Both the position numbers and the translations under genes were made by a program. This document shows, piece by piece, positions 8,320 to 52,344 of a stretch of 64,000 bases of DNA (its first letter is position 1; every line of letters begins with the position of its first letter). Origin of the DNA: Candidatus Azambacteria bacterium (GTDB lineage: Bacteria > Patescibacteriota > Minisyncoccia > UBA10092); the NCBI GenBank assembly GCA_016213445.1, contig JACRAJ010000001.1, forward strand, positions 142,203 through 206,202. Direction: 5' to 3'. The notes under the pieces were generated by a model. It had not been told where the DNA came from and did not search any database. It worked only from the letters and a program-made list of their open reading frames with translations.

Positions 8320-9288
8320 TTAAAACTCTCCTTTGTCTTGCCTTAAATCGAGGATATTTTTGGCGGAGTTTGTTGGGGGCGCGCCGGAAGGTTTCATTAT
8401 ATATTGAGGCGCCAGTTCGCGATTTTGCTGAACCGGAATGGGCGGCGCGGTTGGCGTTGGACTTGGAATTTCAACAGGTTCCCTGTATGTATCGACCGGC
8501 TTTTGCGCGGGCATTGAAATTTTATGAGGTTCAGCTTCAATAAGCGGCGGCATTGCGGGCTTTGGAGCCGGCGCGGCTGGCGCCAGGGGCATCGGCCTTA
8601 TCGAAAAAACCGGCTTGGGCGCCGCCGGAGCCGGAGTTTCCGCCAAGGGCGGACCAGCCTTGGGCTGGGGCGCGGCTGGCATCGGCGCCGGAGGCGCCGT
8701 TGGTTTGGGCGTGATTGGCATCTCCGCTAAAGGCGGACCAGCCTCGGGTTGGGGCGCCGGCGGCGTTGGCATCGGCGCAACCGGCACTTTTCTTAAATCG
8801 ACAACTTCCGGCGCCGGGGGCATTGCCGCCGGTTCGCGGTATTTATCGAAAATTGGTTTGGGAGCCGCTGGCGCCGCAGGCTGTGGCATCGGCGTCGGTT
8901 GAGGCGCGGGCGTCGGTTGAGGCGTTGGAATCGCGCCTGGCGGTGCGACGATGGGTTGGGGCGGAATCGGCACGGGCGCGGGCGCTAAAGGCGCCAATAA
9001 TGGCGCCAAAAGTTCAGCGTTTAATTCCTGCGCCAGACTCGTCGCGATTTGCGTGTCGGATGTGATTTGCGAGTTAATTTCTTGCGTCAAAGATGTTGGC
9101 GGGATTATTCCTAAAATAATGTCGCCGATTACTCTTGCCAAAAGCGAAACTTGATCATCGTCTAAACCGTATTTTTTTCCGATTCTATCAATAGTGTCGG
9201 CCGTGGCGTCGGAAAATAGCGCCTCTTGCAATTGAGGCGGCAATTTACCGAATAATTTTATTTTTTCTTCTCTGGTTATTTCGGGCAT
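8320..9288 (-). CDS. Proline-rich repeat protein, hypothetical
   Basis: 322 aa. A helical N-domain is followed by PxP-rich repeats (...PQPEAGPPLAEMP... / ...PQPKAGPPLAETP...). The plus-strand ORFs in this interval are antisense artefacts. Confidence 0.7.
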   Translation of the reverse strand: MPEITREEKIKLFGKLPPQLQEALFSDATADTIDRIGKKYGLDDDQVSLLARVIGDIILGIIPPTSLTQEINSQITSDTQIATSLAQELNAELLAPLLAPLAPAPVPIPPQPIVAPPGAIPTPQPTPAPQPTPMPQPAAPAAPKPIFDKYREPAAMPPAPEVVDLRKVPVAPMPTPPAPQPEAGPPLAEMPITPKPTAPPAPMPAAPQPKAGPPLAETPAPAAPKPVFSIRPMPLAPAAPAPKPAMPPLIEAEPHKISMPAQKPVDTYREPVEIPSPTPTAPPIPVQQNRELAPQYIMKPSGAPPTNSAKNILDLRQDKGEF

Positions 9289-13823: not shown

Positions 13824-13971
13824 AAAAATAAAATCAAATATAATTTTTCTCGCGCGTTCGCCCCGCCGGCGCGGGGCTCTCTGTCCGTTCTCGCCCCGAC
13901 GCTCCCGCTACGCGGAGACCATGCCGTCGGGGCTGCGGAAGCTGCGAAAAATTATATTTGATTTTATTTTT
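13824..13971 (+). repeat. Palindromic structured intergenic element, copy 1 (148 bp)
   Basis: Perfect 25-bp AT-rich terminal inverted arms: 13824-13848 AAAAATAAAATCAAATATAATTTTT pairs with 13947-13971. The GC-rich core has hairpin CCCCGC-CGGC-GCGGGG, a long stem GCCCCGACG/CGTCGGGGC, and conserved TGTCCG, ACCATGC and AAGCTGCG blocks. Confidence 0.85.
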
Positions 13972-14806
13972 CTTTCTTAATTTTGTATGGAATTTCGGTT
14001 GTCAGAGAAAGCCATTGTTTCAAACTTAAATTTTCCGCTCTGGCGTTTTCCGGAATATCCAGTTTTTTGAATATTTTCGCGAGTTTTTCTTTTGGCGCGC
14101 CGAATTTTTTGGAAAGGTTTCCGATTAGTTTTTTTCTCGGCTGGGAAAAGCCGGCTTTAACAGTCGCAAAAAACGCGCCGCGCGTCTTTTGCGGCGGCTT
14201 TTTGCGGGGAATGATTTTTATTATAGCCGAATCAATTTTTGGCTTGGGCCAAAAAGCTTCCGCCGGAACATAATCGACAATTTTTGCGTCGGCGTAAAAT
14301 TGAACGCTTGCCGCCAAAAGATTCGCGCGAGGAGGTTTTGCGCATATTCTTTGCGCCACTTCTTTTTGAACCATTAAGACCATTAATTGCGGAGGTTTTT
14401 CGGCTTCCAGCCACTGCCGTATTAAAAAAACGGCGATGTTATATGGCAAATTCGCCGCAATTTTATATTTTTCGAGCGATAGGTTTCCGACACCTATCGA
14501 TCGGGCGTCGGCGTGGACAATTTTTATGTTTGAAAAATCGGCCAGCGTTTCTTTTAAAATTGAAATCATCAGCGGATCTTTTTCAATGGCGGTGATTTTA
14601 GCGCCGGCTTTCGCCAGTTCCCGGGTAAGCGCGCCAAGCCCCGGCCCGATTTCGACAATCGCATCGCTTTTCTTTATTTCCGCGGCGGCAGTCATTTGAT
14701 TAAGGGCTTTTTTTGACAAAATAAAATGCTGGCCAAGGTATTTTTCCGCCCTCGCCCCGTGTTTTTTCAGCAGTTCTTTTATTGTTGTCTTGTCGGTTAA
14801 GTCCAT
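13964..14806 (-). CDS. rsmA: 16S rRNA (adenine1518/1519-N6)-dimethyltransferase
   Basis: 280 aa. Contains the SAM motif VEIGPGLGALT and overall KsgA architecture. The stop codon lies inside the arm of repeat copy 1. Confidence 0.9.
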   Translation of the reverse strand: MDLTDKTTIKELLKKHGARAEKYLGQHFILSKKALNQMTAAAEIKKSDAIVEIGPGLGALTRELAKAGAKITAIEKDPLMISILKETLADFSNIKIVHADARSIGVGNLSLEKYKIAANLPYNIAVFLIRQWLEAEKPPQLMVLMVQKEVAQRICAKPPRANLLAASVQFYADAKIVDYVPAEAFWPKPKIDSAIIKIIPRKKPPQKTRGAFFATVKAGFSQPRKKLIGNLSKKFGAPKEKLAKIFKKLDIPENARAENLSLKQWLSLTTEIPYKIKKEK

Positions 14807-17702: not shown

Positions 17703-17857
17703 TAAATAAAAACCAAATATAATTTTCCTCGCGCATTCGCCTCGCCAGCGCGAGGCTCATTGTCCGATGAAAGCATTTTATTTTTCCGCCTAAAGCGGAA
17801 AAAACCATGCTAAAATGTTTTCATAAGCTTCGGAAAATTATATTTGGTTTTTATTTA
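17703..17857 (+). repeat. Palindromic structured intergenic element, copy 2 (155 bp)
   Basis: Arms at 17704-17726 and 17834-17856 are perfectly complementary over 23 bp. The core has hairpin CCTCGC-CAGC-GCGAGG, stem ATGAAAGCATTTTA/TAAAATGTTTTCAT, and an inner hairpin TTTTTCCGC...GCGGAAAAA. ACCATGC and AAGCTTCG are conserved. Confidence 0.85.
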
Positions 17858-17867
17858 CTTATCAATA

Positions 17868-19406
17868 TTAAACATCCTCTCTCGGCCTGTATTGAAGCGC
17901 TTCGGCCAGGTGCCGGGGTTTTATATTTTCGCAATTATCCATGTCGGCGATGGTGCGGGAAATTTTCAGCAGGCGGTGATATGTCCTGGCCGAAAGTCCC
18001 ATCGAGCTGACCGCATTTTTCATCATTTTTTCCGCTGTTTCGTCCAAAGCGCAATATTTTTTGATGTGGCGGACCGACATTTCGCGGTTGGTTAAAATAT
18101 CTTCGTTTTCAAACCGCCTCGCCTGGATTTCTCTTGTTCGGGCCACTCTTTTTCTCACTGTTTCGCTGGTTTCGCCGAAACTTTCTTTGGCCATTTCCTC
18201 GTATTTCAAACGCGGCACCTCAACATGGAGGTCTATTCTATCCAAAAGCGGGCCCGACAGTTTTCTTTTATAACGTATTATCTGGCTTGCGGCGCAAACG
18301 CATTCTTTCATGTCGTCGTTCAAATATCCGCAGGGGCAGGGATTCATCGCCGCGACCATCAAGAATTGGGCGGGGAAAGTTAAACTGCCTTGGGCGCGGG
18401 AAACCGTTACCCGGTTTTCTTCCAGCGGCTGCCTTAAATTTTCCAAAACGTCGCGGGAAAATTCGGGAAATTCATCCAGAAAAAGAACGCCGCGGTGGGC
18501 CAAAGAAATTTCTCCGGGTCTTGGCCACGCGCCGCCGCCAACCAATGACACGCCCGAAGCCGTGTGATGCGGCGCGCGAAACGGACGTTGCGACAAAAAC
18601 AGCCGATCTTCTTTTAAAAGTCCGGCAACGCTCCAGATTCTTGTCACTTCAATCGCCTCTTCAAGACTTAACTTGGGCAAAATCGAAGCCAAAGCTTTTG
18701 CCAAAAGGGTTTTTCCGGAACCCGGCGGACCGGAAAAAATAATATTGTGGTTGCCGCCGGCGGCGATTTCCAAAACTCTTTTCGCTTTTTCCTGCCCGCG
18801 GATCAAAGCCAAATCAACGTCGGGTTTTTCTATGAAGTTTTTTTCAAGTTCTTTGTTCAAATCGGAATTTTTATATGCGGTTAACAATTTTTTGTTTTCA
18901 AGATGTTCCAAAATTTCATTCAAATTGGCGGCGCCGACGATTTCTATGTCGGAAACAAGCGTCGTTTCGGCGATGTTTTCTTTCGGAACGAACAAGGTTT
19001 TGAAACCGCGATTTTTTGCCTCGATTGCGATTGACAGCGCGCCGTTGACGGGCCTCAAGGCGCCGTTTAAAGCCAGTTCGCCGACAAAAAGTTTCTTTTC
19101 CGGATCGAATTTCGTCTGGCCGGAAATAAGCAAATATCCCAGCGCTATCGGCAAATCGTACGCCGGCCCTTCTTTTTTCAAATCGGCCGGCGCCAGATTG
19201 ATGGTGACTCTTTTGTTGCGGCGGCTTGGCGGGGAAGCGCCGGAATTTTTCAACGCCGCGGAAACGCGGTCTTTTGATTCTTTAATGGCGATATCGGGCA
19301 GTCCGACAATGTTGAAACTAAAAAGGCCGGGCGACAAATCGCACTCGACCTCCACAATTTTCGCGTTTATTCCGCACAACGCGGCCGAATAAAGTTTAGA
19401 CGACAT
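17868..19406 (-). CDS. comM: YifB/ComM Mg-chelatase-like AAA+ protein
   Basis: 512 aa. Contains GPPGSGKT, VLFLDEFPEF, and the C-terminal Mg-chelatase ChlI-like region. Confidence 0.9.
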   Translation of the reverse strand: MSSKLYSAALCGINAKIVEVECDLSPGLFSFNIVGLPDIAIKESKDRVSAALKNSGASPPSRRNKRVTINLAPADLKKEGPAYDLPIALGYLLISGQTKFDPEKKLFVGELALNGALRPVNGALSIAIEAKNRGFKTLFVPKENIAETTLVSDIEIVGAANLNEILEHLENKKLLTAYKNSDLNKELEKNFIEKPDVDLALIRGQEKAKRVLEIAAGGNHNIIFSGPPGSGKTLLAKALASILPKLSLEEAIEVTRIWSVAGLLKEDRLFLSQRPFRAPHHTASGVSLVGGGAWPRPGEISLAHRGVLFLDEFPEFSRDVLENLRQPLEENRVTVSRAQGSLTFPAQFLMVAAMNPCPCGYLNDDMKECVCAASQIIRYKRKLSGPLLDRIDLHVEVPRLKYEEMAKESFGETSETVRKRVARTREIQARRFENEDILTNREMSVRHIKKYCALDETAEKMMKNAVSSMGLSARTYHRLLKISRTIADMDNCENIKPRHLAEALQYRPREDV

Positions 19407-24565: not shown

Positions 24566-24712
24566 TTTAAAACCAATATAAATAATTTTTCTCGCGCATT
24601 CACCTCGCCAGCGCGAGGCTCATTGTCCGATGAAAGCGTTTTGTCCCCCTGCGGGGGAACCATGCCAAAACGCTTTCATAAGCTTCGTAAAATTATTTAT
24701 ATTGTTTTTAAA
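24566..24712 (+). repeat. Palindromic structured intergenic element, copy 3 (147 bp)
   Basis: Arms at 24566-24589 and 24689-24712 match at 23 of 24 positions. The core has hairpin CCTCGC-CAGC-GCGAGG, stem ATGAAAGCGTTTT/AAAACGCTTTCAT, and an inner hairpin CCCCC-TGC-GGGGG. ACCATGC and AAGCTTCG are conserved. Confidence 0.85.
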
Positions 24713-24737
24713 GAAGGAAAAAAATTATTTTATTCAA

Positions 24738-26657: not shown

Positions 26658-26731
26658 CGGGGAGTCGTATAGTGGTAGTACGTATGCTTTGGGAGCATAT
26701 AGCCCGAGTTCGATTCTCGGCTCCCCGACCA
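26658..26731 (+). tRNA. tRNA-Pro (anticodon TGG), CCA encoded
   Basis: Acceptor CGGGGAG/CTCCCCG, anticodon arm TATGC-TTTGGGA-GCATA, T arm CCGAG-TTCGATT-CTCGG, 3' end ACCA. Confidence 0.9.
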
Positions 26732-26825
26732 AATGCAACTTTGTAAATTTTTTGAATAGGCCTTGAATTATTGGGTTTGCGGATTTTGTTTTCCGATAAA
26801 TTAAAATTTTGGAAGAAAAAATAAC

Positions 26826-27977: not shown

Positions 27978-28048
27978 GGGCCCATAGTAAAGTGGCATTA
28001 CGCTACATTCGCATTGTAGAGGCGGGAGTTCGATTCTCCCTGGGTCCA
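27978..28048 (+). tRNA. tRNA-Ala (anticodon CGC); integration target
   Basis: Acceptor GGGCCCA/TGGGTCC carries the G3:U70 identity pair. Anticodon arm CTACA-TTCGCAT-TGTAG. The discriminator A is followed by CAA rather than CCA because of the insertion. Confidence 0.9.
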
Positions 28049-29563
28049 CAATTCAAAACTTTTCAACTTTTTCGCTGGGGACAAGTCGGAATGCTCGCCG
28101 CACCCAGTGGCGCGGCTCGCAAGGAATTGAGCCCAAAAATCCCACGGCGCAGAAAACGAAAAGGAAACGGATTTGTCCAAAAGTTGATGGTTCGTTCCAA
28201 CTTTTTGGACAAATGCCTTTATTTCTCCGAAACTGTCGCTCCGCGACAGTTTTTCGGCTTTCTGTATGTCTAAAATCCAACTCCGCAATGGTTCAATCCA
28301 ATTCTTTCCCATGCGTCCAAAATCGCTCTTTTGGGACGCAAGAGAAACTTTTTGTTTCAAAAGTTCTTCCTTTTTGACGAGATAACTTTCCTTTGGTATG
28401 TCGCCGTCAATATAAGAAGAAACGAGCTTGTCCAGTTTCTCTTGCGTCTCTTTCTGATTTCCCCGCAGATTTTGGACGAATGTTTGCGATGAGTCTACTT
28501 GCTCCTTTTCCCACGCTTCAACTTGCTTCAACATTTTTCCCGTCCACTCATCGCAAAGCGCAACGCTTTGAAGCCGTGATTTTAGTTGCGAAACAAGCAA
28601 ATCTTCTCGTAAATATTTTTGAGCACAATTTCCCTTTTTCCGCGTACACCGATAGTAGCGATATGTTCCGCCGTTGCCGTGCGCGTATTGAGCGGTGATT
28701 GCGCTTCCACATTGTCCACAGGTGAGTAGTCCGGTAAAAGGGAAATTGTGCCTCTGTTTGGATTTGCGAGGTTTTGCTTTTCGCTTCAAAATCTCCTGCA
28801 CGGCTTCAAAGGTTGCGAGGGAAAGAATTGGCTCAAAGCGTCCGTCAAAGTATTCGCCTTTGTGCGCCACAAAACCGAGATATGCCCGATTGGTGAGCAT
28901 CCGATGGACGGATGCTTTGGCAAGTGGCGTTCGGTGCCGAGTTTCAATACCAAGTTCCGCCAAAAACTCCGAAAGAGATTTAAGCGTATGCGTGCCTTTG
29001 GCGAATTCCTCAAACGCTCGCACTACAATTTTTGATTTCGCGGGGTGCGGTTCAATCGTGCGAGTTTTGGGATTGTTCACATAGCCAAAGGGTGCGAGCG
29101 TCAGCCATTCTCCACGGCGGAGTTTTTGGCGGATACCGCGATTGATGTTCTCTACCAAATTATCCGAGTAATATTTGGATTGACCGAACGCCACTTGCAA
29201 CATAAATTTCCCTTGCGGAGTTGGCTCAAACCAAAATGTCGGAAAACGCAAAGAAACGATTTTTTCGATATCCACGAGATAGATGACGCGTCCGCCGTCA
29301 ACGCTATTGCGAGCAAGGCGATCCGGATGCCAGGCGAGTATTCCCACGCCTTGCGATTGCTCAATAAGCGTCATCATCTCGTTGAATTTCTCTCGTCCGG
29401 GTTTCTTTGCGCTTTCCGCCTCGGTAAATTCTTGGAGAATTTCCGCATTTTCTCTACGCGCATATTCTCGTAGCTCAAAGAGTTGAGCTTCAATACTCAT
29501 AATTTGGTGGTCGTCATCTTCGGTGGACTTGCGAGCGTAGAGAAAATATTTTGGTTTGAGCAT
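27998..29563 (-). CDS. Large serine recombinase (resolvase domain + recombinase domain + zinc ribbon)
   Basis: 521 aa. The N-terminus is YARKSTEDDDHQIMSIEAQ (catalytic Ser region). A Cys cluster CGQCGS...YYRC follows. The last 15 codons read antisense through the tRNA-Ala gene. Confidence 0.9.
   Translation of the reverse strand: MLKPKYFLYARKSTEDDDHQIMSIEAQLFELREYARRENAEILQEFTEAESAKKPGREKFNEMMTLIEQSQGVGILAWHPDRLARNSVDGGRVIYLVDIEKIVSLRFPTFWFEPTPQGKFMLQVAFGQSKYYSDNLVENINRGIRQKLRRGEWLTLAPFGYVNNPKTRTIEPHPAKSKIVVRAFEEFAKGTHTLKSLSEFLAELGIETRHRTPLAKASVHRMLTNRAYLGFVAHKGEYFDGRFEPILSLATFEAVQEILKRKAKPRKSKQRHNFPFTGLLTCGQCGSAITAQYAHGNGGTYRYYRCTRKKGNCAQKYLREDLLVSQLKSRLQSVALCDEWTGKMLKQVEAWEKEQVDSSQTFVQNLRGNQKETQEKLDKLVSSYIDGDIPKESYLVKKEELLKQKVSLASQKSDFGRMGKNWIEPLRSWILDIQKAEKLSRSDSFGEIKAFVQKVGTNHQLLDKSVSFSFSAPWDFWAQFLASRATGCGEHSDLSPAKKLKSFELWTQGESNSRLYNANVA
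28050..28151 (+). repeat. Repeat Y (left end of element)
   Basis: Its 102 bp differ at 5 positions from the reverse complement of 29614-29715. Confidence 0.9.
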
Positions 29564-29613
29564 AATTTTTGAATTAGGATTTTAGATATACAGTCTGTTT
29601 CCGTTTCGTTCAA

Positions 29614-29715
29614 TGCGCCGTGGGATTTTTTGGCTCAATTCCTTGCGAGCCGCGCCTCTCGGCGCGGCGAGCATTCCGAATTGTCCCCAGCGAAAAAGTT
29701 GAAAAGTTTTGAATT
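29614..29715 (-). repeat. Repeat Y, inverted internal copy
   Basis: Reverse complement of 28050-28151 with 5 substitutions. On the plus strand it encodes an alternative recombinase-tail cassette, APWDFLAQFLASRASRRGEHSELSPAKKLKSFELWDILKIARTHFEER*. Confidence 0.9.
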
Positions 29716-29719
29716 GTGG

Positions 29720-29858
29720 GATATTCTAAAAATAGCGCGAACCCATTTTGAAGAAAGATAACGCCTCGCTTCGCTCGGCGAATCCGCTCGGGCGGCGCGG
29801 GAAGGAGGGGTGGGGGGAGGAATGCCCGCGCCGCCCTCGCTTTCGGAAAGTCGCGCGC
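29720..29858 (-). repeat. Repeat X, inverted internal copy
   Basis: Reverse complement of 31076-31213 with one substitution and one C-run indel. It is contiguous with inverted Y across a GTGG core at 29716-29719. Confidence 0.9.
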
Positions 29859-29935
29859 TAAAATTTCCAAAAATCACAATAAAATAGTAAAATGAGAATG
29901 GGTCGATTATCTTAAATTTTCTAAAAAATATTTCT

Positions 29936-30154
29936 ATGGATAGAAAACATTTCAAATGTCTGTTATGGAAAACCTTGTGGGGTTTGAGCGTCTTGTCTCT
30001 TGTCGCCGCATGGTTTTCGATAAAATCAAGTGCGGTACTTGGGCTTGATGCGGCGACTTGGTTTTGGAACGCTCTAATTTTTGTTGCGCTATCAATTCCG
30101 ATTAAGCTAGATTGCCATTCCTGCGATGTGTGTGGAATAAGTCCGCGAGCTTGA
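29936..30154 (+). CDS. Small two-TM membrane protein with C-terminal CHSCDVC motif, hypothetical
   Basis: 72 aa with two hydrophobic helices. Located in the cargo module of the element. Confidence 0.45.
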   Translation: MDRKHFKCLLWKTLWGLSVLSLVAAWFSIKSSAVLGLDAATWFWNALIFVALSIPIKLDCHSCDVCGISPRA

Positions 30155-30249
30155 CGAGAAACTTTTTTCATGCTATCATAGCGGCAGAATGAAAAGTGGT
30201 GTGTAGCCACTTTTCCAGTTGAAAACAAACCGAAAAATGGAGGTGTCAA

Positions 30250-30990
30250 ATGTTCGGACAGCTGACAGAGTTCGTTCTGCCGCGTATAATTGGAGTTATG
30301 CTTCACAAGCGCGAAAAACTCACCAAGAAAGAACAGGTGGCGCAAGATGCGTTCATGGCGAAGCTCGACATCAAGAAGCGCAAGACCGATAAGCCGGTCG
30401 TCGTGGCCGTCATCGGCCTCGTTGGTTCCGGCAAGAGTTCGGTGGCGCACGAGCTTGCCAAGCACATCGGTGCGACGGTTATCGAGGGAGACGACATTCG
30501 TATCGAGCTTCGCAAACAGAATGAACGCTACGAGAAATCGCGCGCCATCGCCGAGAACGCCGCTATCGAAGTCGTGAAGCAGGGTGGCAATGTCATTCTC
30601 GATTCCGACTTCGTGGACGAGAAGAAGCGCGCGAGCGTTCGCGAGAAAGCACGCAAGGCAGGCGTGCGCCTCGTCTTCGTTCGTACTCACTGCGACCTCG
30701 ACGTCATGGTGGGCCGCGTCCTTACCGCAACCTATCACAATCGCGTTGACGATTTCTTCGGCGGCGCGAAGTCCAAGTGGCAAGGAAGCGAGCAATCGAA
30801 AGGCGCGGCGGTGAAGGTTCGCGAGATGTGGCGGCGCACGCCTCACCATTATCGCTGGGTCAATCAAGGCGGCGGGCAGTGGAAACTCAAAAAGTTTCCG
30901 TTCGCAATCTTCGCCGAGATTGACACCACGGATTCCGATTCGTGGAAACGCGAAGTGGAGAAGTGCGCGAAGCAACTCCTCACGCGGTAA
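30250..30990 (+). CDS. P-loop kinase/NTPase (AAA_33 / zeta-toxin-like fold class)
   Basis: 246 aa preceded by GGAGG 8 nt upstream. Walker A is VIGLVGSGKSSVAHEL and a Walker B-like motif is NVILDSDF. The gene is GC-rich. The 516-aa antisense ORF over it is judged an artefact. Confidence 0.7.
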   Translation: MFGQLTEFVLPRIIGVMLHKREKLTKKEQVAQDAFMAKLDIKKRKTDKPVVVAVIGLVGSGKSSVAHELAKHIGATVIEGDDIRIELRKQNERYEKSRAIAENAAIEVVKQGGNVILDSDFVDEKKRASVREKARKAGVRLVFVRTHCDLDVMVGRVLTATYHNRVDDFFGGAKSKWQGSEQSKGAAVKVREMWRRTPHHYRWVNQGGGQWKLKKFPFAIFAEIDTTDSDSWKREVEKCAKQLLTR

Positions 30991-31075
30991 ATCGCAATCA
31001 AGGGCGACCGAGGCAAAAGCCAAGGTCGCCCTTTCTCTTTCTTTGATTTTTTGGTAAATTAAATTCATAATAGTT

Positions 31076-31213
31076 GCGCGCGACTTTCCGAAAGCGAGGG
31101 CGGCGCGGGCATTCCTCCCCCCACCCTCCTTCCCGCGCCGCCCGAGCGGTTTCGCCGAGCGAAGCGAGGCGTTATCTTTCTTCAAAATGGGTTCGCGCTA
31201 TTTTTAGAATATC
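31076..31213 (+). repeat. Repeat X (right end of element)
   Basis: Contains a 12-bp GC stem, GGGCGGCGCGGG...CCCGCGCCGCCC. It ends ...TTTTTAGAATATC followed by the CCAC core at 31214-31217. Confidence 0.9.
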
Positions 31214-31329
31214 CCACCATAAGGAACTTTCAGAATTTTTTGAGCCAGGCGACAGGCGCCGCCAGTTAGGAAATGAAGCAGTTGGCTCGCCAGCCGATTT
31301 TAATTTTGATTAGTTGGCTGGTTAATTAG

Positions 31330-34088: not shown

Positions 34089-34604
34089 ATGAGCACAGAG
34101 TGGCGCGAGGAAGACGGCGTCATCTACTTTGGCGTCACCTCGGACGGCACGACCGGCGAAGCCTGGATCAAGCGTCTGGAAGGCAACGGTTTCAGCGTCG
34201 AAGACTACGCCAAGCAGGTGCTCCGTTCGCCGGACTTCAAACCGACGAGCGGCGTGACGACCGAAGTCGCCGTTCTCAAGGGCATGCTCTTCGAGGACAA
34301 CGACCGGATCACGAAAAAAGTTCGTACCGAGGCCAACAAGCGCAGGCTTTCGAAGCCGAACGCCGAACTGGCTTGCCTCATCCGTGAGAAGTTCACGGAC
34401 AAGGAGATCGAAGCGATGGGTCTGTGGTATGTCATTGCCATGCACGAACCCATCAACGACTCCGACGGCGGTTCGAACTTGCTGCACGCGGGCCGTAGCG
34501 GCGTTGGTCGCTGGCTCGACGCGTACTTCGACAGGCCTGGCAGCAGGTGGAGTCGTGACAACGGGTTCGCGTTCGCCGTGTCGCAAGTCAGCTCTAAACA
34601 CTAA
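34089..34604 (+). CDS. DGR variable (target) protein, 171 aa, C-terminal CLec-like variable region
   Basis: GAGGAGG lies 7 nt upstream of the ATG. The gene is GC-rich and has no signal peptide. The C-terminus ...GRWLDAYFDRPGSRWSRDNGFAFAVSQVSSKH contains the VR. Confidence 0.85.
   Translation: MSTEWREEDGVIYFGVTSDGTTGEAWIKRLEGNGFSVEDYAKQVLRSPDFKPTSGVTTEVAVLKGMLFEDNDRITKKVRTEANKRRLSKPNAELACLIREKFTDKEIEAMGLWYVIAMHEPINDSDGGSNLLHAGRSGVGRWLDAYFDRPGSRWSRDNGFAFAVSQVSSKH
34459..34589 (+). repeat. DGR variable region (VR)
   Basis: Gap-free 131-nt alignment to the TR. All 15 mismatches fall at TR adenines. Confidence 0.9.
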
Positions 34605-35011: not shown

Positions 35012-35142
35012 AATCCGACGGCGATTCGAACTTGCTGAACGCGAACCGTAACGACGATGGTCGCTGGCTCAACGCGTACAACGACAGGCCTGACAACAGG
35101 TGGAATCGTGACAACGGGTTCGCGTTCGCCGTGTCGCAAATC
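35012..35142 (+). repeat. DGR template repeat (TR)
   Basis: Reads ...NLLNANRNDDGRWLNAYNDRPDNRWNRDNGFAFAVSQ and is rich in AAC codons. Same orientation as the VR. It ends 3 nt from the avd stop codon, which lies on the other strand. Confidence 0.9.
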
Positions 35143-38106: not shown

Positions 38107-38177
38107 GGGCCTATAGTAAAATGGTATTACACATCCATGGCATGGATGAGGTTGGGGTCCGATTCCCCATAGGTCCA
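38107..38177 (+). tRNA. tRNA-Ala (anticodon GGC)
   Basis: Acceptor GGGCCTA/TAGGTCC carries G3:U70. Anticodon arm CATCC-ATGGCAT-GGATG. It begins 3 nt after tRNA-Arg. Confidence 0.85.
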
Positions 38178-38231
38178 CCGGGAAAAAATTTTGCAAATTT
38201 TTGATCTTTAAAACTGCAAAGGAGGAGTGTT

Positions 38232-42439: not shown

Positions 42440-42510
42440 AGCGGGATGCGAGAATCGGACTCGCGCCCATACCTTGGAAGGGTATTGTACTGCCACTATA
42501 CGAATCCCGC
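42440..42510 (-). tRNA. tRNA-Gly (anticodon TCC)
   Basis: Acceptor GCGGGAT/ATCCCGC, anticodon arm ATACC-CTTCCAA-GGTAT, T arm GCGAG-TCCGATT-CTCGC. Confidence 0.9.
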
Positions 42511-52148: not shown

Positions 52149-52295
52149 AAATAAAAGCGGAAAACATTATTTTCGAAGCTTCCGCAGCCCCGACGGCATG
52201 GTCTCGCCGCAGGCGAGCGTCGGGGCGAGGACGGACAGAGAGGTCGCCGCTGGGCGACCGAACACGCAAGAAAATAATTTTTTCCGCTTTTATTT
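52149..52295 (-). repeat. Palindromic structured intergenic element, copy 4 (147 bp, opposite orientation)
   Basis: Arms at 52149-52173 and 52271-52295 match at 24 of 25 positions. Read in reverse complement, the core shows hairpin GGTCGCC-CAGC-GGCGACC, stem GCCCCGACG/CGTCGGGGC, and inner hairpin CTCGCC-TGC-GGCGAG. ACCATGC and AAGCTTCG are conserved. Confidence 0.85.
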
Positions 52296-52344
52296 GTCAT
52301 AACTTTATTTTTTCACTTTTATTTTCATAAGCCGCTTTTATTTA

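Follow-up and report, generated by a model that had tools for sequence, protein, structure and literature searches.

In SCCmec, the large serine recombinases (LSRs) CcrAB, usually encoded by two ccr genes, act at the 3' end of rlmH, where elements accrete in tandem and no separate directionality factor is involved. The integrases of SSV1-type archaeal viruses (the SSV type is reviewed in PMC8371274) are tyrosine recombinases whose attP lies inside the int gene, and the 'integration-dependent immunity' of mycobacteriophages, reportedly described by Broussard et al. in 2013, places attP inside a repressor gene. Amongst DNA inversion systems, the Hin recombinase gene is located inside the invertible H segment, and the Gin/Cin, R64 pilV and hsdS shufflon systems swap C-terminal coding ends, whilst the circle junction of Tn4451, one of the Tn4451/Tn4453 elements moved by TnpX, creates a promoter for tnpX. 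Here we describe an integrated 3.17-kb LSR element located at the 3' end of a tRNA gene, at positions 28050-31217 of a 64,000-nucleotide stretch of a Candidatus Azambacteria genome (assembly GCA_016213445.1, contig JACRAJ010000001.1, positions 142,203 to 206,202; hereafter the window), together with its relatives. The family has the defining features of none of SCCmec, SSV1 and integration-dependent immunity, or Hin and the shufflons, and its best explanation, which we hold with moderate confidence, is that of an invertible LSR cassette toggling between a tail-less and a full-length recombinase.

Self-comparison of the window resolved the element into a recombinase module and a cargo module, each bracketed by inverted repeat arms (Y and Y', X' and X). 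The junctions are named S1 (tRNA to Y), S2 (inverted X to Y) and S3 (X to the right flank), and the module is said to be in state A when the 3' end of the LSR gene faces the tRNA gene and in state B when its 5' end does. The features of the element are as follows.

27978-28049, plus strand: tRNA-Ala(cgc) gene (ARAGORN; Rfam RF00005, 64.8 bits)
27998-29563, minus strand: LSR gene of 521 amino acids (aa), in state A
28046-28049, plus strand: S1 core CCAC, the left crossover region, at tRNA positions 71-74
28046-28171, plus strand: Y arm, outer copy, whose minus strand codes for roughly the final 40 recombinase codons ahead of the core (inverted repeat and open reading frame (ORF) listing)
29594-29719, plus strand: Y' arm, inner copy, just 5' of the recombinase start codon
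29716-29719, plus strand: S2 core GTGG, centre of the internal inverted attP (the reverse complement of X-CCAC-Y)
29716-29865, plus strand: X' arm, inner copy, with a T-arm mimic, GGGTTCGCGC, and a GC-rich hairpin
29720-29761, plus strand: spare 'tail exon', DILKIARTHFEER and a stop, continuing the frame of the recombinase 3' end as copied in Y'
31069-31217, plus strand: X arm, outer copy
31214-31217, plus strand: S3 core CCAC, the right crossover region
31218-31267, minus strand: scar Y*, a Y-arm remnant including the recombinase 3' end of an earlier element of L004/L003 type

The core CCAC/GTGG was common to all three junctions, being direct at 28046 and 31214 and inverted at 29716. The GTTCG of tRNA-Ala(cgc) begins 18 nt ahead of CCAC, and the T-arm and 3' acceptor strand of this tRNA gene form the B (host) half-site of S1; in the X' arm, GTTCG lies 23 nt from the core. 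Y and Y' constitute an inverted pair of 126 nt that is 92% complementary, with a longest identical run of 39 nt, and the inverted X' and X copies differ by one substitution and one single-G indel. These comparisons bore out the initial annotation of this locus in its order of parts (tRNA, Y, recombinase, Y'-GTGG-X', cargo, X-CCAC), in its five mismatches between the inverted Y copies (exactly five within 28050-28151/29614-29715) and in its one substitution and one single-base indel between the X copies. The inverted pairs that it delimited were also recovered, with arms that proved somewhat longer than it had given (28046-28171/29594-29719 and 29716-29865/31069-31217). Its reading of the central block was upheld as well, in that the internal Y'-core-X' block is, judged by its sequence, a second complete attP in inverted orientation, and the predicted circle junction is identical to S2 over approximately 270 bp. 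The alternative that X and Y were ordinary dispersed repeats was not borne out, since probes of 29-38 nt from each matched only their own two copies in the 64 kb, where shuffled sequences lead one to expect none. The arms belong to the recombinase. What did not survive was the treatment of the DNA to the right of 31217 as a naive flank, as it is instead the scar of an earlier related element.

The element ends, Y and X, are not inverted copies of one another as the terminal inverted repeats of a transposon would be, and the cores flanking each module are inverted, not direct as in a transposon target duplication. Searches of the X and Y arms against Rfam gave no match at gathering score or at E <= 1. 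The possibility that the arms are unusually stable DNA hairpins was rejected, folding being no better than that of shuffled sequence (z = -0.14 and -0.53). The X arms each contain a GC-rich hairpin (29790-29836 and 31098-31144) with a conserved G-rich loop, AAGGAGGGGTGGGGGGAGGAAT, and Shine-Dalgarno-like GGAGG repeats; the hairpin is present in distant family members too (L082 and L083), and its fold is statistically ordinary.

The window protein is, by its domains and motifs, a bona fide LSR. Pfam matches were obtained to Resolvase (PF00239, 1.3e-22, residues 7-153), Recombinase (PF07508, 4.7e-14), the first DNA-binding domain, and then Zn_ribbon_recom (PF13408, 6.1e-12), the second, the YARKST motif was invariant, and the nucleophile S13 was kept in 19 of 19 aligned homologues; an exact look-up of the protein returned no record. 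The combination of Resolvase, Recombinase and Zn ribbon, along with a short core at all junctions, is shared with the phiC31, Bxb1, A118/LI and SPbeta integrases of phages and mobile elements. Hin, Gin, Cin and Pin differ in having approximately 190 aa, a C-terminal helix-turn-helix (HTH), 26-bp sites and a Fis-dependent enhancer, as compared to 521 aa and arms of 126-150 nt here.

In the window the recombinase ORF runs across Y into the antisense strand of the tRNA gene, such that ...KSFELW is followed by TQGESNSRLYNANVA and a stop, these being its last 15 codons. Translation of the plus strand of the internal copy instead gave ...APWDFLAQFLASRASRRGEHSELSPAKKLKSFELWDILKIARTHFEER and a stop. 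When each LSR frame in the family was extended across the core into X as present in S2, the frame was open in nearly all loci examined, and in 47 of 56 it encoded a conserved in-frame tail, [DEQN][IL]L.[FV]ART[HYF]FE.., before a stop, the X-encoded portion being 13-19 aa in length. By comparison, the 'actual' tails of relatives are junk of approximately 1-50 residues. Mean column entropy of the tail at codon positions one, two and three was 0.73, 0.56 and 1.14, the third position being the most variable, and single-nucleotide codon differences within the ARTxFE block numbered 1925 synonymous against 776 nonsynonymous. The arginine of the tail was moreover retained through CGA-to-AGA changes that altered the GTTCG motif itself. 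The excess of synonymous differences and the third-position variability therefore indicate that the X tail is under coding selection. On this evidence the full-length LSR includes the X-encoded tail, which state A replaces with tRNA-antisense junk, and a full-length protein would come from the free circle or from the flipped orientation. Placing the attachment site within a coding sequence, with integration altering a protein that governs the fate of the element, is a likeness to SSV1 and to integration-dependent immunity; those systems, however, employ tyrosine recombinases and split or truncate the gene without a spare copy, whereas in this family only the 13-19-aa tail is swapped, and the spare exon and inverted repeats permit its re-attachment.

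The design recurs across a large family. More than 6400 homologous LSR proteins were found, nearly all from metagenomes of the candidate phyla radiation (CPR)/Patescibacteria; a peptide-pattern scan of viral contigs found no relatives. From these, 80 genome loci were fetched along with the contexts of close homologues, and repeats were scored by self-comparison in 85 sequences. An inverted repeat with one arm just 5' of the LSR start and the other over the LSR 3' end was present in 68 of the 85 loci, with arm lengths of 45-180 nt and identities mostly of 92-100%. In 13 loci with enough upstream DNA, a second inverted pair abutted the first with an overlap of 4-12 nt, corresponding to the shared core, and two of these double-pair copies are in the complete-chromosome record CP060229.1. 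The second pair encloses 1.1-5 kb of unrelated cargo, including restriction-modification genes, transporters, glycosyltransferases and membrane proteins. The initial annotation knew of no LSR element organised in this way, and none was found in the searchable literature; a large LSR survey makes no mention of tRNA targets or inverted repeats (PMC10083194).

Many contigs break off within the upstream arm, leaving for instance 55 or 99 nt of it, and amongst loci L002-L076 the recombinase starts 50-600 bp from the contig end in most contigs of metagenome-assembled genomes. The repeats thus appear to be a systematic cause of assembly breaks beside tRNA genes in CPR genomes. The window contig is itself phased, because its Y copies differ at several spaced positions between identical runs no longer than that given above, and copies that differ cannot represent a collapsed graph node. 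Identical arms that exceed the assembly k-mer in length make orientation calls unreliable (as in L134), and only loci with diverged arms were relied upon. L134 (Ga0209204_1017148) contains an 866-nt inverted repeat of 97% identity (1-861/2366-3226) flanking a recombinase, with the same HTH gene present twice; two explanations fit, a chimeric palindrome assembled from two strains and a cargo copy that has flipped within a tandem array, and the locus was left out of the evidence.

The LSR cassette occurs in both orientations, at the same tRNA, within two lineages. In the first pair, the tRNA-Pro of a tRNA-Ala/Phe/Pro cluster is met by the LSR 5' end in the locus from sample ERZ27249281 (L138) and by the LSR 3' end in L139 (an 873-kb NCBI contig), L140 (ERZ27249272) and L141; these last three were examined from 12 contigs carrying the protein that were looked up. 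In L138 the LSR frame runs on into X' and ends in the conserved tail. All four loci agreed at 1550 of 1550 positions in the unique portion of the module, host flanks were 99.94-99.98% identical, and the cargo was collinear between L138 and L139-L141. Within the 158-nt arms, a single-nucleotide polymorphism (SNP) at position 86 stays with the flank (C with the tRNA, T with X) when L140 and L141 are compared with L138, L139 having C in both arms, and inner arm SNPs in L138 do not keep the combinations found in L140 and L141. The arm haplotypes of L138 are absent from the state-A contigs, and L138 is therefore not a mis-phased copy of them. The exchange lies inside the arms, inner to position 86, and fits neither a crossover at the core nor re-integration through the other attP. 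At position 129, both arms of L138 have G and both arms of L139 have T, an example of concerted evolution.

In the second pair, two samples (L082 and L094) showed tRNA-Ala(tgc) and Y followed by the LSR 5' end, and in L137 this module (96.4% over 1638 nt) had its 3' end toward the same tRNA 3' half and Y. The breakpoint fell 47-60 nt from the core, within the arm's conserved GC hairpin, and mis-phasing of k-mers is implausible, as the arms share no more than 15 or 26 nt of exact identity. We infer that the exchange proceeded by homologous recombination (or template switching) between arms, not by LSR catalysis. The self-inverting switch suggested by the initial annotation thus stands as far as the module is invertible, with both orientations found at the same tRNA in relatives, and lacks support as far as inversion by the recombinase itself is meant, the exchanges being inside the Y arms. 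Its prediction that inversion would supply an alternative ending is likewise sustained by a conserved, selected peptide; the 49 codons it gave are not, the number being dependent on the exchange point, and a core crossover would change only the last 13 codons of the window LSR. For its further idea that the cargo module flips we found no evidence, and as the cargo differs between elements, comparison of orientations is uninformative.

Several side observations concern exchange between elements. One was made at L138 10923-11482 against the reverse complement of L139 9176-9735: the two contigs are 99.8-100% identical in host DNA and recombinase module, but across L138 10462-11482 identity to L139 is only 94.5%. 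Over its first 307 nt X' matches the L139 X arms at 100%, and these two arms do not differ from one another, which places the drop past the arm; strains may swap cargo cassettes by way of the long X arms. The recombinase at L082 10001-11566 (protein P0015), along with proteins P0122 and P0123, is a mosaic in which approximately 215 N-terminal residues are of the window type and the remainder of L003 type, and the same mosaic body was joined to three different C-terminal arm types across assemblies. This pattern suggests that co-resident elements often recombine homologously, the GC hairpin of the arm serving as a junction.

The outer Y arm ended exactly at the 3' end of a tRNA or tmRNA gene convergent with the LSR in 31 of 39 scanned loci. 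At least nine tRNA specificities were represented (Ala, Pro, Glu, Val, Gly, Leu, Lys, Arg and Ser) in addition to tmRNA, with tRNA positions 71-74, the shared core, as the insertion point throughout the family. Alignment of S1 and S2 of all loci at the arm boundary showed that the left half of S1 is the T-arm (GGTTCGA...), with GTTCGA 18 nt from the boundary in 42 of 47 loci, and that the left half of S2 (X) has a T-arm-like GGTTCG(C/A)GC located 22-24 nt from it. The motif was therefore offset, X minus B, by +5 or +6 bp in 46 of 47 loci. In attB half-sites the motif recognised by the second DNA-binding domain (DBD2) of LSRs is approximately 5 bp nearer the centre than it is in those of attP (PMC11722253), and the offset fits this rule with X as P-type and the tRNA as B-type. 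The LSR thus probably reads the universal T-arm as its host half-site, with X as a shifted mimic, which would explain the use of so many tRNAs by one family. On the right, Y conserves only AC at +3/+4, an A-run (AAA) and AAACTT at +11 to +16, and no conserved distal (DBD2) motif was found at a fixed offset in the right halves, the P/B contrast having been tested on the left only. Native right flanks resemble Y by eye, and Y is tentatively typed as B-like. In the relatives L081 and L001, joining the element ends restores the tRNA or tmRNA and its native terminator; the restored site of the window would be tRNA-Ala followed by the right-hand scar.

The phiC31, Bxb1, A118/LI and SPbeta integrases likewise have a distal DBD2-type motif, displaced outward by 5-6 bp in the element site relative to the host site. 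Unlike those integrases, the family targets the T-arm and 3' end of many tRNAs and of tmRNA rather than one protein-coding gene, and shows a P/B contrast in its left half-sites only, the right halves (Y and host) being alike. A further departure is that the recombinase frame crosses attP, that an inverted attP lies inside the element, and that no directionality factor is evident. Instead of a single attP with inert attL and attR sites, the family has a second attP and tRNA-Y junctions that are apparently re-used, and the ORF listing and Pfam searches of these 3-kb elements revealed no gene resembling a recombination directionality factor (RDF).

The toggling cassette that we favour would operate as follows. 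In state A, a tail-less LSR convergent with the tRNA would be locked and quiescent. Homologous recombination between the Y arms would flip the LSR gene and join it to the tail exon at 29720-29761, and the flipped LSR, now full-length and directly downstream of and co-directional with the tRNA, would be active and could excise the element via S1 x S3. The excised circle would carry two equivalent attP sites and make full-length LSR, and since tRNA-Y sites would still be usable, new elements would stack tRNA-proximally and decayed ones would leave Y scars. Flipping would solve the catch-22 of an integration that truncates its own recombinase, and the switch would explain both the duplication beyond a 50-bp site and the near-identity of the arms; we infer a regulatory consequence of the toggling from this arrangement. 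A wider proposal, which we advance only tentatively, is that of a class of LSR elements in which DNA arrangement, rather than a directionality-factor protein, sets directionality or activity. A conserved attP-spanning peptide would be lost on integration, the internal inverted attP and the 100-180-bp arms would allow host homologous recombination to flip the gene and restore the peptide, thereby re-arming the element for excision, and recognition of the T-arm would open any tRNA or tmRNA gene as a potential landing site. Inversion of a gene within its segment and the swapping of C-terminal ends are likenesses to Hin and the shufflons. Those are small serine or tyrosine invertases acting at 26-31-bp sites, some with an enhancer, whereas here the LSR of a mobile element is flanked by 100-180-bp arms, the two traced exchanges fell within the arms, and the recombinase itself is recoded. 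Tn4451 and Tn4453 are similarly small LSR-driven elements in which recombinase expression is tied to topological state, but there control is exerted by a promoter and not by a coding end, and they have neither a tRNA target nor an internal inverted site.

Other explanations of the same arrangement were weighed against the toggling cassette. The LSR might invert its own gene by recombination of S1 with S2 at the core, tRNA-Y acting as attB and X-Y as attP. Incoming elements do seem to use tRNA-Y junctions (as at the window scar and in L125, L116 and L083), S1 and S2 form an inverted B-type/P-type pair 1.5 kb apart, and attP x attB recombination proceeds without an accessory factor, as is established for LSRs (PMC11722253; see also PMC3783163). 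Both traced exchanges, however, were inside the arms and at least 47 nt from the core, free inversion by the LSR predicts approximately equal numbers of A and B states where unequal counts were found, and attL x attP pairs are inert in canonical LSR systems, so we regard this as unlikely. It is also unlikely that S2 serves as a second integration site, the two inverted attPs of the circle giving either state A or state B with no flip in situ and selection favouring A. The attP copies are indeed sequence-equivalent in the circle, the tail would be needed there only, and state A predominates. Re-integration, though, would turn the cargo around with respect to the host as well and move the arms whole together with the module, yet the cargo is collinear between L138 and L139-L141 and SNP 86 stays with each flank, placing the exchange inside the arms, as is likewise the case for L082 versus L137. 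An origin of L138 by re-integration via the other attP was accordingly ruled out by its arm SNPs and cargo collinearity.

It is very unlikely that the inverted duplication has a purely cis-acting role, with S2 an operator or decoy by which the LSR controls its own promoter, or an architectural site standing in for a directionality factor in excision, or with the arms as insulators or terminators. S2 is located approximately 150 bp 5' of the LSR start in every state-A locus, the 3-kb elements have no evident directionality-factor-like gene, and promoter-like hexamers, TTCAAA-18 nt-TAGAAT, overlap X. Such a role nevertheless leaves unexplained why 100-180 bp are duplicated with an in-frame gene 3' end and tail, the arm hairpins fold as shuffled sequence does, and the -10-like hexamer is unconserved at the DNA level. 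An outward promoter as the main constraint on X was rejected on the same grounds, as the hexamers are unconserved as DNA and the encoded residues are conserved. The remaining options, both raised by the initial annotation, were an assembly artefact (a hairpin or inverted chimera) and a composite in which two unrelated elements bearing terminal inverted repeats lie head to head, and these can be practically dismissed. Inverted repeats longer than the k-mer do break and sometimes mis-join short-read assemblies, as seen in contigs that end in arms and probably in L134. Against an artefact stand the same layout in 68 of 85 loci from independent assemblies of many projects and assemblers, many with diverged arms, its presence in the complete chromosome CP060229.1, and window copies that differ at 5-6 positions, which is impossible for a collapsed graph node; a simple element, moreover, would offer no edge from the recombinase 5' region into Y'. 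A composite is at odds with an X that invariably accompanies the recombinase module and codes for the tail of that same recombinase, and with modules that share one core and are flanked by inverted cores, not direct ones as at a transposon target. X and Y occur nowhere else in the window, which speaks against both options.

Several points weigh against the toggling cassette itself. Inversion could be a rare, neutral by-product of inverted repeats, and use of the tail in the free circle would by itself suffice to account for its conservation, with no inversion in situ; it is mainly because such neutral inversion would also fit that our confidence is no more than moderate. At least 25 loci with non-identical arms are all in state A, and window-type elements comprise 13 in state A and two in state B. 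The window itself shows no flipping, its arms of 92% identity being a poorer substrate for homologous recombination than the arms of 98-100% in most relatives, and neither an excised circle nor an empty site was recovered for its strain. Proteins with an X tail numbered 21 of 120, many being from short contigs with identical arms that an assembler cannot phase; they were rejected as a count of state B, being unreliable where arms are identical and longer than the k-mer (L134). An AlphaFold2 model of the full-length homologue P0015, built with 19 tail-bearing sequences and inspected for the coiled-coil motif that LSRs carry within DBD2, contained long helices at 339-414 at low confidence (mean pLDDT 61), and with its C-terminal residues at pLDDT <50 it is uninformative on the tail. 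The competence of tRNA-Y as a target rests on junction anatomy, and all data are assemblies, mostly of short-read metagenomes, rather than reads.

That anatomy is nonetheless seen at several places. Positions 31205-31256 of the window share 90% identity over 52 nt with the X-end/core/Y junction of L004 (L004 5832-5883), itself located at tRNA-Ala, and the minus strand of 31214-31267 reads ..LSPGSKNSESSLWW, resembling the L004 recombinase tail ..PSGSKNSESILWW. This scar implies that the window element entered the tRNA-Ala-Y site of an earlier, different member, or went into a resident that has since been deleted. In L125 and L116, another X type is joined to a window-type Y, and in L083 the LSR module is flanked by X-type halves on either side. 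L090, L101, L129 and L133 retain only 23-40 nt of Y beside the tRNA, amongst them two different tRNA-Ile(GAT) hosts that carry the same Y scar. Two other window tRNAs are similarly marked, with scars at 26726-26760 and 38175-38205: tRNA-Pro(tgg), at 26728, is followed by CGACCAAATGCAACTTT, the first 17 nt of the L044 Y arm, and tRNA-Ala(ggc), at 38177, by ..ATTTTGCAAATTTTTGA, a Y of L003 type, which suggest past occupancy by other family members. Taken together, the tRNA-Y junctions appear to remain usable targets at which elements would stack tRNA-proximally and decay. An X-distal-like similarity 3' of tRNA-Gly at 42440 was rejected, being judged a generic GC hairpin after the HU gene. In L131 (Ga0209824_10035021, approximately 1756-1900) an LSR-less miniature of the recombinase module was observed, in which X-core-Ya (36 nt) passes directly into Yb' (65 nt)-core-tRNA antisense, then another X'; it is possibly a non-autonomous derivative mobilisable in trans by a recombinase. 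A small LSR island at the 3' end of a conserved gene, with a reusable target and tandem accumulation, is a likeness to SCCmec, for which the evidence here is anatomical. SCCmec differs in having a protein-coding target, the rlmH 3' end instead of a tRNA or tmRNA 3' end, and in being without an internal inverted attachment site, inversion of the recombinase or a frame split by the site.

The family is a very abundant group of CPR/Patescibacteria mobile elements for which no description was found, and it offers a testable, protein-free solution to LSR directionality, in which a conserved end of the enzyme's own is switched by integration and inversion. For recombinase engineering, the host half-site would be a T-arm and the element half-site a mimic shifted by half a helical turn, and a pre-installed landing pad could in principle be dispensed with where the enzyme uses a sequence that all tRNAs share. 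In metagenomics, the family would account for a systematic class of contig breaks beside tRNA genes in CPR genomes, and short Y-type scars may mark past occupancy.

Further features of the element are a possible promoter and two cargo genes.

29585-29613, minus strand: TTGAAC-17 nt-TATATC, possibly the promoter of the recombinase gene, on the inner margin of the Y' arm, read from the sequence
29936-30154, plus strand: cargo ORF 1, 72 aa with a hydrophobic stretch, no Pfam or PADLOC match
30250-30990, plus strand: cargo ORF 2, a 246-aa P-loop kinase-like protein (AAA_33/APS_kinase/Zeta_toxin-like; Pfam AAA_33, 1.8e-14)

A consensus promoter scan does not list the TTGAAC-17 nt-TATATC pair, and the promoter is thus a putative one. 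Cargo ORF 2 has a GC content of approximately 0.58 compared to approximately 0.40 nearby, and PADLOC searches of the cargo gave weak P-loop matches only.

Other repeats were present elsewhere in the window. An intergenic repeat of approximately 150 nt occurs in four copies, at 13825-13985, 17705-17870 and 24568-24725 on the plus strand and at 52150-52320 on the minus strand. Its consensus fold has 51 pairs, 29 of which are retained through changes on both sides, and comprises a long AT-rich outer stem that varies whilst staying complementary, a GC hairpin and a long inner stem, with conserved blocks TTCTCGCGCRTTC, TGTCCG, ACCATGC and AAGCTTCG. Chance hairpin matches aside, it matched no Rfam family at gathering score or E <= 10, and it is perhaps a structured RNA not described before, or else an intergenic palindrome. 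Two direct copies of a 129-nt repeat (89% identity) in a GC-rich stretch, at 34461-34589 and 35014-35142, and a cluster of 53-nt GC-rich direct repeats at 8639-8982 are probably repeated protein-coding segments.

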